Shown: positions 46,624 to 60,472 of the stretch, in pieces | Numbering within the stretch: the stretch's first letter is position 1 | Layout of the letters: every line of letters begins with the position of its first letter | Source of the DNA: a bacterium | GTDB lineage: Bacteria; UBA8248; JACPRG01; G963555815 | Assembly (NCBI GenBank): GCA_965218795.1 | Contig: OZ244653.1 | Span: 2,048,001-2,112,000 of the forward strand | Reading direction: 5' to 3' | DNA: 64,000 bases | Notes under the pieces: model-generated | Seen by the model: the letters and a program-made list of their open reading frames with translations, nothing else | Databases searched by the model: none | What the model was told of the DNA's origin: nothing | Translations under genes and position numbers: made by a program

Positions 46624-47304
46624 ATGGAACCGGACAAGACTTCCCATATTGATCGGCAAATCGGGAGGATTGGCGAGCGGATCAGCCGCCTGCGCAAACA
46701 GGCGGGCCTGTCTCTTCGCGATCTGGCCGATCGGACCGGTGTCTCCTTCACGACCATTCAGAAAATCGAAACCAGTACAATCGTTCCTTCCATCGCGTCC
46801 GTCTTGAAAATTGCCCAAGGCCTGGGGAGGAATGTAAGCTACCTCTTGGACGAGGCGGAGAATCCGGGAGACATTCGTCTCGTTCGGCGTGCCGAGCGAA
46901 CCATAACGGACGTCTTCGCATCCAGGCTCCGCGTGGAAGACATCGGAATGGATTTGAGGGATGCACTCCTTCAGGCAACCGTACTGACCATCGAACCCGG
47001 CGGGATCAGCGGCACAGAACCGCTTCAACACCCGGGCGAAGAAATCAAACTTTGTTTGAAAGGAAGGATGGAATACCGGGTGGGGGCGGAGAACTTTCAA
47101 CTGGAGGAGGGAGACTGCCTGCATTTCAAATCCGATATCCCTCATTATTGGAAGAATCCGGGAAAAGAGAAGGCTGTGATCCTTTCGGTGTGCACGCCGC
47201 CTCCCTTCCCGACCGTGAGTAACCTGAGCACGAGTGCAGAGCGAGGCGGCAACCCGCGATCAGACCAGAACGGGATACGATGGGGGAAGGGCTCCATTGA
47301 CTGA
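46624..47304 (+). CDS. XRE-cupin (PuuR/SutR-like) transcriptional regulator
   Basis: IGERISRLRKQAGLSLRDLA..IETSTIVPS; cupin HPGEE..GDCLHFKSDIPHYWKN. Confidence 0.9.
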   Translation: MEPDKTSHIDRQIGRIGERISRLRKQAGLSLRDLADRTGVSFTTIQKIETSTIVPSIASVLKIAQGLGRNVSYLLDEAENPGDIRLVRRAERTITDVFASRLRVEDIGMDLRDALLQATVLTIEPGGISGTEPLQHPGEEIKLCLKGRMEYRVGAENFQLEEGDCLHFKSDIPHYWKNPGKEKAVILSVCTPPPFPTVSNLSTSAERGGNPRSDQNGIRWGKGSID

Positions 47305-48229
47305 AATCCGGAAGGTTGCTGTTCTCGGAACGGGAACCATGGGGAACGGCATCGCCTTGTGGTTCGCCAGGGCGGACCTCGAAGTACGGATGCGCGACCT
47401 GGACGCAAATCTTCTGGACCGCGCCCGGACAATGCAGGCCGATACGCTGAAAACCCTTGTCGCGGCCGGTACCGTTCCTCAGGAAGAAGAGGAAGCCATT
47501 CTCGGCCGCATCCACGGGACGACGGAGATGTCCGAGGCCCTGGAAGGGGCGGACTTTATCCTGGAGGCCGTCCCGGAAGTCCTCGACCTCAAGCAGAATG
47601 TCTTTGGCGAGATTGAAAAGCTGGCCCCGCCGGGCATTCCTCTGGCCTCCAACACTTCGGGAATCAGCATCTCCCGAATTGCCGAGGGGGTTCGGGACCC
47701 CTCCCGCGTAGTGGGCATGCACTGGTGGAACCCTCCCCACATGGTTCGGGTCATTGAGGTCGTTCGGGGTGAAAATTCTTCGGAGGCGGTGGTCCAGGCC
47801 ACCCGGGGCCTCGTCGCTCAGATCGGCAAACGGCCCGTCATGGTGAAAAAAGATTTGCCGGGTTTTCTGGGAAACCGCATCCTCTACGCCCTGCTCCGGG
47901 AAGCCGTGGATTGTTATGAGAAAGGGATTGCGGAGCCGGAGGACATCGACCTGATCGTGAGCGAAGCGTTCGCGCTGAAGCTGGCCTTCATGGGGCCGAT
48001 GGCCCTGTTGGATCTCGCAGGGATCGACATCTACCACGACGTATCAAAGTATCTTCATACGGATTTGTGCGACGCCAAGGAGGTCAGCCCCGCCATCGCT
48101 GAAAAAATCACAAAGAAAGAATTGGGGCTCAAAACGGGCAAGGGATTTTACGACTACAGCGACGTCGATATCCCCGAATTATTGAAAAAGCGCGGTCAGC
48201 AGATGGGGGGATTGCTCAAGATCATGTAG
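47297..48229 (+). CDS. 3-hydroxyacyl-CoA dehydrogenase family protein, resembling FHMPC dehydrogenase of vitamin B6 degradation
   Basis: GTGTMG, EAVPE, SNTSG, GMHWWNPPH, NRILYALLREAVD, GPMALLDLAGIDIY; TTG start overlaps the regulator stop. Confidence 0.82.
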   Translation: MTEIRKVAVLGTGTMGNGIALWFARADLEVRMRDLDANLLDRARTMQADTLKTLVAAGTVPQEEEEAILGRIHGTTEMSEALEGADFILEAVPEVLDLKQNVFGEIEKLAPPGIPLASNTSGISISRIAEGVRDPSRVVGMHWWNPPHMVRVIEVVRGENSSEAVVQATRGLVAQIGKRPVMVKKDLPGFLGNRILYALLREAVDCYEKGIAEPEDIDLIVSEAFALKLAFMGPMALLDLAGIDIYHDVSKYLHTDLCDAKEVSPAIAEKITKKELGLKTGKGFYDYSDVDIPELLKKRGQQMGGLLKIM

Positions 48230-48264
48230 CCCTTTTCTCAAGGGGCGAATCAGGGGACCGGCTC

Positions 48265-49143
48265 ATGGATGCAAATCCGAGAACACAAAACCCTTTCCGA
48301 TGGCCCGGAGATGCCCGGATTGCGATCAGCATTGTACTGAACGTGGAGGAATGGACGTCCGAAGGTCCATCGCCCCTCTACTTCCCCCTCCCGCCGGGCT
48401 CCAAGACAGCGCGGGATACCGCTACGGTCACCGACCACGATTACGGCTATCGCGCGGGGATTTGGAGATTGCTTGAAATCCTGGATCGGTATGAGGTGAA
48501 AACAACCGTCTGGACATCTGGTCTTGCAGCCGAACTCCATCCCACAGTGATCCGGCAGATGCACGACGCGGGCCATGAAATCGGGGGGCACGGGTATGAC
48601 AAATCATTCCCCTCGGTCCTGATGGACCGGGAGGAAGAGAAGGCCGATATCCAGAAAACCATCCGGGAGATTGAAAAGGCCACTCAAAAGGCGCCCATCG
48701 GGTGGATGTCTCCCAGCATGCGCTCAGGAGAGAACACCCTGCCGCTTCTCATTGACAACGGTTTCCTTTACCACAGCGATACGATTGGGCACGACCTGCC
48801 CTTCATGGACACCGTGGGGGATGACCGGTTGCTCGCGGTGCCGTATTCTTTGCTCAACAACGATTACCGGTTCTACAGTTACGGGGATCCTCCCTTGACC
48901 CCTGAGGAGGCCTTCGAATGGCTCAAAGGGGACTTCGACCAATTGTACGAGGAAGGAGAAACATTTCCCAAAATGATGAGCTACGGGATTCATCCATACG
49001 TGACCGGTCGGCCGGGCCGCGCGCGGAGCTTCGAGCGGTTCATCCGTTACGCGAAAGGATTCTCCGGCGTGTGGTTCGCCCGCAGGGATGAAATTGCGCG
49101 GTGGTGGCTGGAGAACAATCCGGACACCGGCCGGGAAGGATAG
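48265..49143 (+). CDS. CE4 polysaccharide-deacetylase-fold amidohydrolase (PuuE allantoinase-like)
   Basis: WPGDARIAISIVLNVEEW, DYGYRAGIWRLL, HEIGGHGY, GIHPYVTGRP. Confidence 0.85.
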   Translation: MDANPRTQNPFRWPGDARIAISIVLNVEEWTSEGPSPLYFPLPPGSKTARDTATVTDHDYGYRAGIWRLLEILDRYEVKTTVWTSGLAAELHPTVIRQMHDAGHEIGGHGYDKSFPSVLMDREEEKADIQKTIREIEKATQKAPIGWMSPSMRSGENTLPLLIDNGFLYHSDTIGHDLPFMDTVGDDRLLAVPYSLLNNDYRFYSYGDPPLTPEEAFEWLKGDFDQLYEEGETFPKMMSYGIHPYVTGRPGRARSFERFIRYAKGFSGVWFARRDEIARWWLENNPDTGREG

Positions 49144-49300
49144 AAAGCGGAAGACGCCCACTGGGCCTCGACGCGGGAAGTCGGGGTCGGGCAACGACTT
49201 CAAACGGAGGGCATTCGCCAAGTCGAACCCCTCCGGTGACTTCGTCCCAAATTCCAGCAAAAGAACAGTCACACAGATTTGAACATAGGGGAATGAAACG

Positions 49301-58847: not shown

Positions 58848-58938
58848 TTACCGGTCCCCGCCCGTCATAGACCGGAAACCGTCGATCGCCGGACCGGAGG
58901 ACCGGGTCCGGCTCCCCCAAGCCTCGGGAGATTGTTCC

Positions 58939-59946
58939 ATGGCAGACAAACTTGAATTCGGCGTCAACGTCAACACACGCGCCCCCATCATCTATCCGGA
59001 ACACTACAAACCCTCCGACATGTTCGATCTGGCCGAGGAGGCCGAAAACCTGGGCTTTGACGGCGTATGGTCAGCCGACAATTTCTTTGAGAAAGCACGC
59101 GTTGAGTCCACGATCACGCTCGGCGGGATCGCGGCGCGGACACAGAAGGTCAAGATCAGCACGTCGTCTTTCATTTTCACCACCCGGAACGTCGTTTGGA
59201 TGGCCCTCACCTGGGCGAGTCTGGATCAGGTCTCCAACGGGAGGATGATCATGACGGTCTGCGTGGGCGGAGGCAGCCCCGAGGCCGGGGGGATACGTCC
59301 CAACGCGCAATACCATTACCTCGGAATCCCCTTCAACAAGCGCGGCGCATACATGGAAGAGCAGATCAAGCTGATCCGCCGTATCTGGCTGGAAAAAGAG
59401 GTGACCAACGAGAGCGATCTGCCTCTTCATACGATGGAAGGGATTCAGGTGGACGTCCGGCCCATTCAAAAACCGATACCCATCTGGATCTCCAACAACC
59501 CGCAAATCTTCAACGTCAAGGGCAAGCTCCTGGAGCGGATGATGCGGCGGGTCGGAGAGCTGGCGGACGGATGGCAGACCTGCACCGCCACCCGGCGGGA
59601 GTACAAAGAGCTTTTCGATATGGTGAAGGGCTACGCCAAGGCCGCGGGCCGGGACCCCAATGAACTCACGGGGGGGTATCATTTGACATGCGGCGTTCGT
59701 GAGGATCCGGTGCAGGCCCGGCAGGAGGCCCTCGAGTTTCTCAACAAGTACTACGTCACGGAATTCACCGACCTCTCGCAATCCATGTGGAACCGTGACG
59801 CCTTCGGAACGCCCGATGACGTGATCCGGAAGATCGAGGATCTGGCCGAGGCCGGCTGCACGAATTTCTGCGCCCGATTTGCCACCACGGACCAGTTCGG
59901 CCAGTTGCGCATGTTCGCGGAGAAGGTCCTCCCCCGGTACAAGTGA
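58939..59946 (+). CDS. Luciferase-like (LLM) flavin-dependent oxidoreductase
   Basis: AEEAENLGFDGVWSADN, IAART, SLDQVSNGR, PIQKPIPIWI, ADGW, GTPDDV. Confidence 0.88.
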   Translation: MADKLEFGVNVNTRAPIIYPEHYKPSDMFDLAEEAENLGFDGVWSADNFFEKARVESTITLGGIAARTQKVKISTSSFIFTTRNVVWMALTWASLDQVSNGRMIMTVCVGGGSPEAGGIRPNAQYHYLGIPFNKRGAYMEEQIKLIRRIWLEKEVTNESDLPLHTMEGIQVDVRPIQKPIPIWISNNPQIFNVKGKLLERMMRRVGELADGWQTCTATRREYKELFDMVKGYAKAAGRDPNELTGGYHLTCGVREDPVQARQEALEFLNKYYVTEFTDLSQSMWNRDAFGTPDDVIRKIEDLAEAGCTNFCARFATTDQFGQLRMFAEKVLPRYK

Positions 59947-60082
59947 TTCTCTGGATTGAACGGCGGAACGCCGGGTCTTCACCCAATTCAATGAAATGGG
60001 TGAATCGAAGGCAGGCCCGTCCGGGGAATCGCCTGCGGCTTATCTCATCCATCCTTCAACCCCCCATTGGGAGGATCGGCCA

Positions 60083-60472
60083 ATGGACAAACAAGTCATT
60101 GTGACCGACAAGGCGGCGCCCCCCGTGGGGCCTTACTCGCTGGGCATCAAAACAGGCAATTTGCTGTTCATATCCGGCTCGGTCGGTTGGGATAAGGATG
60201 AGAAGAACGTCGGGGTTGGGGACGTCAAGGCTCAGACCCGGCAGGCCTTTGAGAACATCCGATCCGTCGTCGAGGCCGCGGGCGGCACGATGGAGAACAT
60301 CGTCAAGGTCACGGTCTACCTGACCGATGCCGATGACTACCCCGCAATGAACGAAGTGCGGGCGGAGGTGTTCCCGAAAGATCCGCCGACGAGTACGGCC
60401 TTTGTCGTCAAGCGTCTGATTCCACCCGATTGCTGCGTGGAGATCGAGGCTGTCGCCGCAATTCAGGAGTAG
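60083..60472 (+). CDS. RidA/YjgF/UK114 family enamine/imine deaminase
   Basis: PVGPYSLGIK, LFISG, QTRQAFENI, IVKVTVYL, MNEV, VEIEAVA; the usual PAR Arg reads PTS here. Confidence 0.88.
   Translation: MDKQVIVTDKAAPPVGPYSLGIKTGNLLFISGSVGWDKDEKNVGVGDVKAQTRQAFENIRSVVEAAGGTMENIVKVTVYLTDADDYPAMNEVRAEVFPKDPPTSTAFVVKRLIPPDCCVEIEAVAAIQE

Follow-up and report, generated by a model that had tools for sequence, protein, structure and literature searches.

A UbiD-containing gene cluster with a putative role in the breakdown of vitamin B6-derived hydroxypyridines, and its relatives in metagenomes

Vitamin B6 pathway I, known from Pseudomonas MA-1 and Mesorhizobium loti MAFF303099, converts pyridoxine to succinic semialdehyde in eight steps, according to two accounts (PMC6253932, PMC3538738). 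These accounts describe two bacterial routes for B6 breakdown, both of which open the ring by means of flavin oxygenases (PMC3538738), and report that all genes of both routes have been assigned in M. loti-type organisms (PMC3538738, PMC6253932). The subject of the present analysis is a 64,000-nucleotide stretch of DNA from a bacterium of the lineage UBA8248 (contig OZ244653.1, positions 2,048,001 to 2,112,000), referred to as the window. At positions 46624-60472 of the window lies a run of 14 genes, all on the + strand and separated from their neighbors by -8 to +157 nt. Our analysis makes it fairly probable that these genes form an operon that takes up and breaks down a B6-derived hydroxypyridine carboxylate, most probably 4-pyridoxate or a later intermediate. 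The operon would seem to be a trimmed member of a widespread and undescribed family of B6 catabolic clusters. This family seems to exchange the oxygen-dependent lower pathway, which consists of 3-hydroxy-2-methylpyridine-5-carboxylate (MHPC) oxygenase and α-(N-acetylaminomethylene)succinate (AAMS) hydrolase, for a molybdenum (Mo) enzyme of the CoxM/CoxS/CoxL type (CoxMSL), a NicX-fold metalloenzyme and a luciferase-like oxidoreductase (LLM).

The similarity to pathway I lies in a homologue of 5-formyl-3-hydroxy-2-methylpyridine-4-carboxylate (FHMPC) dehydrogenase and a remnant of a 4-pyridoxolactonase, both encoded in the window, to which related clusters add a pyridoxal 4-dehydrogenase, an intact lactonase, a transaminase-like enzyme and a class II aldolase-family protein. 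However, unlike pathway I, the related clusters also carry CoxMSL, a NicX-fold protein, an LLM or a PreA-like protein, and a small cupin, and the window has a UbiD-family gene in place of the aldolase-family gene, with the upper steps of the pathway not found in its genome. Among the neighboring genes that were scanned, no flavoenzyme of the MHPC oxygenase or 4-pyridoxate dehydrogenase type turned up, although no search was aimed at these families, and one weak α/β hydrolase match was seen, the AAMS hydrolase family not having been searched for directly. The original prediction for this locus, which was made from the sequence alone, held that no described pathway combines these enzymes. This view is upheld by the literature that was searched, in which no B6 pathway with a Mo hydroxylase, a UbiD or a NicX-like enzyme was found (subscription papers and supplements lie outside that literature).

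Nicotinate is degraded aerobically through the nic cluster of Pseudomonas putida, which includes the Mo hydroxylase NicAB and the ring-opening enzyme NicX (2,5-dihydroxypyridine 5,6-dioxygenase), and anaerobically in Eubacterium barkeri by hydroxylation, ring reduction and hydrolytic opening. As in nicotinate catabolism, a Mo hydroxylase is paired here with a NicX-fold protein, presumably for action on a pyridine carboxylate, and, as in the anaerobic route, a reductase candidate (LLM or PreA-like) accompanies a protein whose metal site resembles that of a hydrolase. In contrast with nicotinate catabolism, glutamate and alanine occupy the positions of NicX H265 and S302, there are no homologues of NicC, NicD or NicF and no enamidase-type amidohydrolase, and the substrate is probably a 2-methyl-3-hydroxypyridine. 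A further parallel is the hydroxymethylfurfural (HMF) and furfural pathway of Cupriavidus basilensis HMF14, in which the UbiD-type furandicarboxylate decarboxylase HmfF acts together with the Mo hydroxylase HmfABC. The window likewise has a three-subunit Mo hydroxylase alongside a UbiD-family decarboxylase whose predicted substrate is a heteroaromatic dicarboxylate, and the best PDB match of this UbiD (6h6v, 219 bits) is presumably an HmfF. However, Escherichia coli UbiD scores nearly as high (208 bits), and the cluster differs from that of HMF14 in having neither a CoA ligase nor UbiX, and in its other neighbors.

Window proteins were assigned to families by Pfam and NCBIfam scans, and comparisons with the canonical B6 enzymes were made through NCBIfam models and sequence matches in the PDB, our trees containing no M. 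loti sequence. The best PDB match of the dehydrogenase is M. loti FHMPC 5-dehydrogenase (4om8; E 9.4e-73, 248 bits), compared with 187 bits for the best 3-hydroxybutyryl-CoA dehydrogenase (Hbd) among the PDB matches. Its score on the NCBIfam model FHMPC_DH (NF042925) is 318.3 bits, which is 88 bits above the next model (230 bits). By these scores, the enzyme is nearer to FHMPC dehydrogenase than to Hbd or FadB, as originally proposed, and the three dehydrogenase motifs on which that proposal drew are present letter for letter (GMHWWNPPH, NRILYALLREAVD and GPMALLDLAGIDIY). In a tree rooted on the other paralogues of the 3-hydroxyacyl-CoA dehydrogenase family in the genome, the window dehydrogenase and its relatives of 61-74% identity are sister to the dehydrogenases of aldolase-type B6 clusters (SH-aLRT 87). 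The dehydrogenases of related clusters reach 395-447 bits on FHMPC_DH. FHMPC dehydrogenase is able to interconvert FHMPC and 4-pyridoxate as well.

The 168-amino acid open reading frame (ORF) at 49301-49807 scores 57 bits on the 4-pyridoxolactonase model NF047925, compared with 38 bits for AttM and 27 bits for AiiA, and 3aj3 is its top PDB match. It is therefore closer to 4-pyridoxolactonase than to AiiA, as had been proposed, although its score is far under the NF047925 cut-off of 325 bits and its similarity to lactonases is confined to the C-terminal third. When it is compared with full-length relatives from related loci, the first ~25 residues are retained, the next ~80 residues, which include the HxHxDH motif, are missing, and an arginine-rich stretch replaces the PGHxxGH motif. 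All of the lactonase motifs quoted in the original prediction can be located, with LDNGCLHLD..WN and SHDMEEFNTY in the frame of the ORF and PGHS in another frame, and the relic therefore contains a frameshift. By these matches, the ORF is a decayed 4-pyridoxolactonase gene. It is also the only match to full-length lactonase that tblastn finds in the 5.17-Mb genome. Plasmid sequences yielded only AttM-type lactonases of 32-33% identity in a tblastn search with the lactonase, and no match at E<=1e-60 in one with the pyridoxal-dehydrogenase-like short-chain dehydrogenase/reductase (SDR) of related clusters, so that neither search brought up a canonical cluster.

The arrangement is conserved beyond the window. 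In a genome from another genus of the same family (G004), the order dehydrogenase, ATPase, permease, substrate-binding protein (SBP), UbiD, NicX-like protein, CoxMSL and LLM is retained with 72-88% protein identity, and the order dehydrogenase, ABC transporter, UbiD, NicX-like protein, CoxMSL and LLM also recurs, within the same range of identities, in a metagenome locus (L064). Because this synteny recurs across genera and metagenome loci, chance juxtaposition is excluded, and the co-location of the cluster genes is not accidental. Among 51 genomes of the phylum, close orthologues of the NicX-like protein (86-88% identity) and of UbiD (77-89%) are confined to three other members of the family (G003, G004 and G006); neither was found in the one further genome available for the genus, a 93%-complete assembly. 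A scan of genome contigs with the NicX-like protein gave two loci, both from close relatives. The clusters are common in metagenomes. In a protein collection, the NicX-like protein has 1231 relatives (E<=1e-10), which are named only "aminopeptidase," "leucyl aminopeptidase" or "hypothetical," many of which are on contigs equal in size to those bearing homologues of the dehydrogenase. Metagenome contigs were also scanned with a 28-sequence alignment of NicX-like proteins; 597 stretches matched, of which 419 were confirmed to encode a relative, and the best 80 were analyzed with their flanks.

Counts for these 80 loci are based on tblastn with at least 50% query cover, and neighbors were named by Pfam and NCBIfam. 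The loci are not independent: when the NicX-like protein is clustered at 90% identity, 36 groups are left. Twenty of the 80, termed covered loci, extend at least 2.5 kb on each side of the NicX-like gene. The recurring core consists of the LLM, the NicX-fold protein, a small cupin, the CoxMSL Mo enzyme and the FHMPC-dehydrogenase-like enzyme. Within the 20 covered loci, CoxS, CoxL and the small cupin (120-130 amino acids) are each found in 19, an LLM adjoining the NicX-like gene in 16, a GntR/FCD regulator also in 16, and the FHMPC-dehydrogenase-like enzyme and a class II aldolase-family protein in 15 each. Less frequent are a full-length lactonase of the metallo-β-lactamase (MBL) superfamily (13), a class V aminotransferase (10), an SDR (10), a zinc-dependent alcohol dehydrogenase (8) and UbiD (4). 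The gene-neighborhood check suggested with the original prediction therefore comes out in its favor, with the core being present in G004, in L064 and in the 80 metagenome loci.

Several neighbors in the related loci resemble enzymes of the upper B6 pathway. All four SDRs tested pass the cut-off of the pyridoxal 4-dehydrogenase model NF047923 (361-364 bits versus 325). For the MBL proteins, NF047925 is the best family in four of four cases, with two passing the cut-off of 325 (348 and 354 bits) and two falling under it (294 and 300 bits). Pyridoxamine-pyruvate transaminase is the sole family matched by the aminotransferases at E<=1e-70 (398-477 bits), with none of five reaching the cut-off of 600. 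Because the neighboring SDR, lactonase, transaminase and dehydrogenase all score on models of B6 enzymes, the family as a whole is, as judged by these models, tied to B6 catabolism by several independent enzymes. The window belongs to this family in that it has a NicX-like orthologue beside CoxS, CoxL and an FHMPC-dehydrogenase-like gene. The NicX-like protein of the window shares 47-55% identity with its counterparts in the metagenome loci, the dehydrogenase 42-49% and CoxS 47-58%. CoxL is 51-59% identical in UbiD-type loci and 31-36% identical in aldolase-type loci.

UbiD, which depends on prenylated flavin mononucleotide (prFMN), and the class II aldolase-family protein do not occur together. 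Across the 80 loci, UbiD alone is found in 7, the aldolase-family gene alone in 38, both in none and neither in 35. The corresponding numbers are 4, 15, 0 and 1 in the covered loci and 6, 12, 0 and 18 in the 36 groups. In the common cluster type, the aldolase-family gene lies between the cupin and CoxM, accompanied by a GntR regulator, an LLM and a Bmp-type ABC system. Clusters of the UbiD type have instead an XRE-cupin regulator like that of the window, homologues of which (46-72% identity) head the UbiD-type loci L064, L068, L079, L129 and L116. Because the M. loti decarboxylase that acts on 3-hydroxy-2-methylpyridine-4,5-dicarboxylate (HMPDC; 2z7b) is a class II aldolase-family enzyme, the exclusion fits a non-orthologous replacement of the decarboxylase by UbiD. 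Mutual exclusion is what such a replacement would predict, and it lends weight to the earlier suggestion that UbiD is the decarboxylase of the window cluster. That suggestion had been accompanied by the remark that no class II aldolase-type HMPDC decarboxylase was visible; indeed, the window cluster contains none, and the aldolase-family protein of related clusters gives only tblastn matches of 29-34% identity elsewhere in the genome. Cluster-linked relatives of the window UbiD are 58-65% identical in six metagenome loci and 87% identical in L064, and the closest of at least eight genomic paralogues is 46-48% identical. A single gene for UbiX, which would supply prFMN, is present in the genome outside the cluster (TIGR00421, 222.9 bits versus a cut-off of 108.9).

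A second exclusion concerns the reductase candidates. Among the 36 groups, 22 have only an LLM, 4 have only a PreA-like Fe-S flavoprotein, none has both and 10 have neither. In three UbiD-type loci (L068, L074 and L079), an aldehyde:ferredoxin oxidoreductase and a PreA-like protein replace the LLM. The gene set of L068 (148-20232), L079 and L074 is of an anaerobe type and comprises an SSF symporter, an XRE-cupin regulator, a transaminase-like enzyme, one or two aldehyde:ferredoxin oxidoreductases, the PreA-like protein, UbiD, the FHMPC-dehydrogenase-like and NicX-like proteins, a cupin and CoxMSL, with a CCG/LUD Fe-S protein in addition in L074. Neither an SDR nor a lactonase is present in these three loci. 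Because both are absent, the aldehyde oxidoreductase may convert pyridoxal directly to 4-pyridoxate.

The signature gene of the cluster family encodes a protein that is related in fold to NicX. An AlphaFold (AF2) model based on the 28-sequence alignment has a pLDDT of 92.4, and Foldseek places NicX (7cn3) at the top of its matches with a TM-score of 0.80-0.82 and ~20% identity, compared with 0.61-0.67 for M29 aminopeptidases. The Fe(II) ligands of NicX are His265, Ser302, His318 and Asp320, each of which is described as essential (PMC7910607). In a profile alignment to 7cn3, these positions correspond to E263, A289, H307 and D309, such that two of the four ligands are retained, and the substrate-contacting residues E177 and H189 of NicX align with valine and proline. 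E194, E201, E263, H287, H307 and D309 do not vary among the 28 aligned NicX-like sequences. E263 aligns with the glutamate of the "GEC" motif in the aminopeptidase PepS, and the invariant residues resemble what we take to be the Glu/Glu/His/His/Asp two-metal site of M29 peptidases, although the protein is ~80 residues shorter than the aminopeptidases. Because NicX H265 and S302 are replaced by glutamate and alanine while these six residues are invariant, we favor a hydrolytic role for a protein that, on the model, would have the NicX fold without being a NicX-type dioxygenase. The dioxygenolytic ring opening that was originally assigned to it is therefore doubtful, even though the fold is shared.

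The Mo enzyme has all domains of the three-subunit xanthine dehydrogenase-family architecture. The best PDB match of CoxL is the α subunit of 4-hydroxybenzoyl-CoA reductase (1rm6, 440 bits), followed by hydroxylases of N-heterocycles and CO dehydrogenases, and 4-hydroxybenzoyl-CoA reductase is also its best NCBIfam match (653 bits), with XdhA at 571 bits. However, CoxL reaches no equivalog (cut-offs of 994 and 780 bits, respectively), and CoxM matches the model of the reductase β subunit (HcrB) in two pieces, leaving unmatched a middle region that presumably corresponds to the extra Fe-S loop. There is also no CoA-ester metabolism in the cluster, unlike the context of 4-hydroxybenzoyl-CoA reductase (HcrABC). 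Given the score under the cut-off and the incomplete HcrB match, we rejected a reductive dehydroxylase of this kind, and CoxMSL is likely to have an ordinary hydroxylase architecture.

The LLM is matched best by the F420-dependent LLM model TIGR03619 (110.5 bits versus a cut-off of 166.9), and its best PDB matches are Mer enzymes. Genes for F420 synthesis are present in the genome (CofD, 330 versus 257 bits; CofH, 435 versus 374 bits). A reading of the LLM and RidA as a RutA/RutC-like pair was discarded, given that RutA is not among the 25 best models for the LLM and that RidA scores under the RutC cut-off (101.9 versus 169 bits). The nearest PDB relatives of the SBP are the formylaminopyrimidine-binding protein ThiY (3ix1, 92 bits), which binds a 2-methylpyrimidine, and then THI5, which uses pyridoxal 5'-phosphate. 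The CE4 protein scores 203.2 bits on the PuuE allantoinase model TIGR03212 (cut-off 424.6) and is thus a homologue of 3cl6 and 1z7a and not PuuE itself. Neither CE4 nor RidA is conserved with the cluster, as both are absent from all 80 metagenome loci and from both G004 loci, and the G004 cluster lacks the lactonase relic as well. An additional amidohydrolase differs by lineage, being CE4 in the window, a CN-hydrolase in G004 and an Amidohydro_2 protein in some loci. It is plausible that CE4 and RidA are helpers outside the conserved core, and the defined steps that the original prediction gave them find no support in this distribution.

Model searches of the genome found neither a pyridoxal 4-dehydrogenase (best SDR 220.8 bits versus 325) nor a pyridoxamine-pyruvate transaminase (best 224.2 bits versus 600), and of the lactonase only the relic. 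By known steps, then, the organism is predicted to be one that cannot start from pyridoxal, pyridoxine or pyridoxamine. The missing upper pathway therefore fits uptake of a downstream catabolite. 4-Pyridoxate is the end product of animal B6 catabolism.

From the observed gene content, homology, synteny, UbiD/aldolase exclusion and lactonase decay, we infer a substrate, an order of steps, a site of decarboxylation and each later reaction as follows. The ThiY/THI5-type ABC system would import the pyridine acid, whose 5-side chain would be oxidized by the FHMPC-dehydrogenase-like enzyme to give the 4,5-dicarboxylate HMPDC. UbiD, using prFMN made by the single genomic UbiX, would remove one carboxyl group, a task that might fall to the aldolase-family enzyme in the commoner cluster type. 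The Mo enzyme would then use water to hydroxylate the sole free carbon beside the ring nitrogen, the LLM would reduce the resulting pyridone, and the NicX-fold enzyme would open or deacylate the ring hydrolytically. Lineage-variable amidohydrolases (CE4 in the window) and RidA could complete the release of ammonia. A lower pathway in which hydroxylation is followed by reduction and then by hydrolysis is favored for three reasons. The NicX-fold protein has what looks like a hydrolytic metal site, certain loci have a PreA-like reductase where others have the LLM, and enzymes of oxygen-sensitive types belong to the organisms from which some loci derive; L079, for example, encodes a dehydrogenase identical to a protein of a metagenome-assembled genome (MAG) labeled Deltaproteobacteria. 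By analogy, such a pathway would follow the logic of anaerobic nicotinate breakdown and of reductive pyrimidine breakdown. With regard to the B6 interpretation given in the original prediction, support was obtained for the dehydrogenase, the lactonase relic, the conserved core and the role of UbiD, whereas the CE4 and RidA steps, the NicX-type ring opening and a start from B6 vitamers are unsupported or weakened.

Several observations weigh against this assignment. The 318-bit score of the dehydrogenase is under the FHMPC_DH equivalog cut-off of 500, and the rank of a model is by itself weak evidence, since FHMPC_DH also comes first (216 bits) for a distant paralogue encoded in this genome. 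The genome has at least nine UbiD-family genes at E<=1e-80 (for example, C1:1762022-1763431, 4649952-4651358 and 1937176-1938573), and relatives have 12 (G004) and 9 (G006), a marked expansion of prFMN decarboxylases in the family; with so many paralogues, a UbiD gene beside an aromatic-acid cluster is less telling. Furthermore, the cluster-linked UbiDs do not form an exclusive clade and fall with two genomic paralogues into one unresolved group (support 92/94). The aldolase-family protein of related clusters matches pyruvic oxime dioxygenase (8ix6) with 116 bits but 2z7b with only 57 bits, and it scores 102 bits on a model for 3,4-dihydroxyphthalate decarboxylase, so that it is a putative decarboxylase and its equivalence with UbiD is likewise presumptive. 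The small cupin that is so common in the covered loci was not found in the window type, where a search gave only 27-28-bit matches to the end of the - strand cupin ORF at 46143-46757 and none in the G004 cluster (L029) or L064. CoxL and the LLM are only 31-36% and 32-36% identical, respectively, to their counterparts in aldolase-type clusters, and their reactions may differ. Finally, with a dead lactonase and a transporter from a different family than in the other cluster types, the window cluster may have changed substrate, and the genome encodes a haem-copper oxidase, with which an oxygen-dependent step is compatible.

Much of this evidence can also be accommodated if the B6 link is only ancestral and the cluster, through its new NMT1-type transporter, has switched to a different N-heteroaromatic or hydroxy-aromatic carboxylate, such as another pyridine dicarboxylate or a pyrrole dicarboxylate, which would then be the substrate of UbiD, the Mo enzyme and the NicX-fold protein. 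In this case, the decay of the lactonase, the lack of upper-pathway B6 enzymes in model and tblastn searches of the genome, the replacement of the Bmp-type transporter of the common cluster type, and the absence of the small cupin and the aldolase-family gene from the window type would all have a common explanation. The lower FHMPC_DH score of the dehydrogenase relative to those of aldolase-type clusters (318 versus 395-447 bits), the ~33-35% identity of CoxL and the LLM to the aldolase-type proteins, and the 9-12 UbiD paralogues per genome, which suggest a broad metabolism of aromatic acids, point in the same direction. However, the dehydrogenase is still sister to those of the B6 clusters, the NicX-like protein retains ~50% identity across all cluster types, and UbiD and B6 enzymes do co-occur, because the UbiD-type loci L068, L074 and L079 keep a gene resembling pyridoxamine-pyruvate transaminase (398-454 bits). 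Moreover, import of 4-pyridoxate itself would account just as well for the lost lactonase. We therefore regard retargeting as unlikely, though well worth keeping in view.

The aerobic scheme of the original prediction places decarboxylation and Mo-dependent hydroxylation first. The NicX-like protein, as an Fe(II) dioxygenase, would then cleave the ring to an N-acetyl amide that CE4 deacetylates, with RidA hydrolyzing the enamine. This scheme draws on the same fold comparison that places the protein nearer to NicX than to the aminopeptidases, on the retention of H318 and D320 as H307 and D309, and on the presence of an aerobic oxidase in the genome and of a cytochrome oxidase assembly gene beside one aldolase-type locus. 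Chemical reasoning also agrees with it, in that hydroxylation of MHPC at the free α carbon would produce a ring of the 2,5-dihydroxypyridine type, the 6-methyl group of which would be left as N-acetyl. Nonetheless, this scheme is improbable. Two residues given as essential for NicX from mutagenesis, H265 and S302 (PMC7910607), align with glutamate and alanine, and its substrate residues E177 and H189 are also changed. CE4 and RidA occur in none of the 80 related loci, amidases of the NicD or NicF type are not conserved in the clusters, and the same NicX-like gene is found in loci with aldehyde:ferredoxin oxidoreductase and Fe-S flavoproteins, the dehydrogenases of which are identical or similar to those of MAGs labeled Deltaproteobacteria or Thermodesulfobacteriota. 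Far less credible still is an ordinary juxtaposition of a β-oxidation enzyme acting on acyl-CoA with unrelated modules. The Pfam domains of the dehydrogenase are those of 3-hydroxyacyl-CoA dehydrogenases, and its homologues carry that name in automatic annotation, but the same genes are found together in different genera and in dozens of metagenome loci, and FHMPC_DH has an 88-bit lead over every Hbd or FadB model. In addition, neither the cluster genes nor the scanned neighboring ORFs, which are part of the ORFs of the related loci, include a CoA ligase, thiolase or hydratase.

Uptake and breakdown of a B6-derived hydroxypyridine carboxylate thus remains our preferred function for the window operon. 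A broader proposal, which we put forward tentatively, is that the cluster family represents a third and widespread route through the B6 ring that needs no oxygenase. In this route, CoxMSL would hydroxylate with water, an LLM or, in anaerobes, a PreA-like protein would carry out reduction and the NicX-fold protein, having retained a metal site of the aminopeptidase type, would hydrolyze the product. The route would operate in aerobes and anaerobes of several phyla, with the version in the window being trimmed to begin at 4-pyridoxate and to use UbiD. If the clusters do act in B6 breakdown, they would be the main route of environmental B6 turnover outside a few cultured degraders, and would explain how anaerobes could mineralize vitamin B6. 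They would also provide a first function for the large "aminopeptidase/NicX-like" family and extend both the UbiD/prFMN enzymes and the Mo hydroxylases to a new class of substrates. Because B6 catabolites are proposed as marine signaling molecules in a preprint (bioRxiv 10.64898/2026.01.20.700305), a dedicated pathway for their consumption would bear on the ecology of such signaling.

The 14 genes are listed in Table 1. All carry the families that the original prediction had named for this same-strand run.

Table 1. Genes at positions 46624-60472 of the window and the matches on which their family assignments are based
Feature	Positions	Strand	Evidence
XRE-type HTH + cupin regulator	46624..47304	+	Pfam HTH_3 48.7 bits, Cupin_2 61.9 bits; PuuR-like match 74 bits (cut-off 211)
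NAD-dependent dehydrogenase, 3-hydroxyacyl-CoA dehydrogenase family, FHMPC-dehydrogenase-like	47297..48229	+	PDB 4om8, NF042925, tree
CE4 / PuuE-like amidohydrolase, accessory	48265..49143	+	Pfam Polysacc_deac_1; PDB 1z7a, 3cl6
Decayed 4-pyridoxolactonase (MBL) gene, 168-aa ORF without Pfam match	49301..49807	+	NF047925, PDB 3aj3
ABC transporter ATPase	49828..50661	+	Pfam ABC_tran 108 bits; 78-79% identity in G004, L064
ABC transporter permease	50658..51443	+	Pfam BPD_transp_1 93 bits; 87% identity in G004, L064
NMT1/THI5-family periplasmic SBP	51473..52471	+	Pfam NMT1 148.7 bits
UbiD-family (prFMN-dependent) decarboxylase	52523..53956	+	TIGR00148 313.5 bits (cut-off 244.85)
NicX-fold / M29-like metalloenzyme, signature gene of the cluster family	53977..54975	+	Pfam Peptidase_M29 (PF02073) 27.7 bits (cut-off 27); precomputed PF26233 "NicX"
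Mo hydroxylase FAD subunit, CoxM type	55030..55923	+	FAD_binding_5, CO_deh_flav_C
Mo hydroxylase [2Fe-2S] subunit, CoxS type	55938..56519	+	Fer2, Fer2_2
Mo hydroxylase molybdopterin subunit, CoxL type	56550..58847 (ORF opens 56541)	+	Ald_Xan_dh_C, MoCoBD_1, MoCoBD_2
Luciferase-like (LLM) flavin/F420 oxidoreductase	58939..59946	+	Bac_luciferase 139.7 bits
RidA-family enamine/imine deaminase, accessory	60083..60472 (ORF opens 59996)	+	TIGR00004 111.1 bits (cut-off 106.25)

Three start positions call for comment. The NicX-like gene most likely starts at 53977, which gives the 332-amino acid form present in the protein collection. For CoxL, the ATG at 56550 is the most likely start because 1 nt is missing at 56546 in a related strain, and the later start of RidA at 60083 is probably correct because the related strain has out-of-frame indels at 60010-60058. 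A scan for promoters and terminators gave 4 promoter-like and 13 terminator-like sites, compared with 3.2 and 13.3 expected, and is thus at chance level.

Near-identical contigs from two RNA libraries of one study cover the SBP, UbiD, CoxM, CoxS, the lactonase relic and RidA, with one contig bridging SBP and UbiD and another bridging CoxM and CoxS. This is a weak hint that the cluster is transcribed, as the RNA contigs may include carried-over DNA. The intervals 46102-49407 and 56571-59876 lack contigs in both RNA runs, which is no evidence of silence. Three runs labeled "sponge metagenome" (X16, X18 and X19) contain the region 45000-61500 in near-identical form or in a strain of 95-99% similarity, which has indels at 46583, 56546 and 60010-60058. 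In run X16, a contig of the related strain covers 48628-48965, within CE4.

The G004 cluster (L029; G004:C5:135000-154999) is bracketed by pairs of IS3-type transposase genes (HTH_Tnp_1 and rve) at 411-1729 and 19047-19999. Its right half, which consists of the NicX-like gene, CoxMSL and the LLM, is found again on G004:C7, where the tblastn scores of CoxM, CoxS, CoxL and LLM are identical. This arrangement suggests a mobile unit resembling a composite transposon, or a duplicate created by assembly. An SDR gene upstream of the G004 cluster is 40% identical to the pyridoxal-dehydrogenase-like SDR and was taken to be generic. In another relative, positions 7900-17300 of locus L031 (G003:C23) encode four NicX/M29-like paralogues with 25-29% identity to the window protein, three of them in tandem, which adjoin another CoxS/CoxL/CoxM set and ABC ATPases and represent a different cluster built from the same parts.

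Upstream of the window operon, a second and longer NMT1/THI5-family protein is encoded at 43848-45101 on the - strand, and L064 likewise has a second NMT1-family gene, located between the regulator and the dehydrogenase. An O-methyltransferase gene (45122-46162, + strand) precedes the regulator, the start of which is overlapped by the cupin ORF at 46143-46757 (- strand) if the first ATG of the latter is used. Between a FAD_binding_2 flavoprotein gene (40758-42227) and the upstream NMT1 gene, the region 42547-43252 (- strand) encodes a BrnT-type ribonuclease toxin domain (73.8 bits), and an adjoining small ORF is a candidate antitoxin. Downstream of the operon, the - strand segment 60582-62299 contains a 155-amino acid ORF without a Pfam family and a gene of the ornithine cyclodeaminase/mu-crystallin family (61253-62299).

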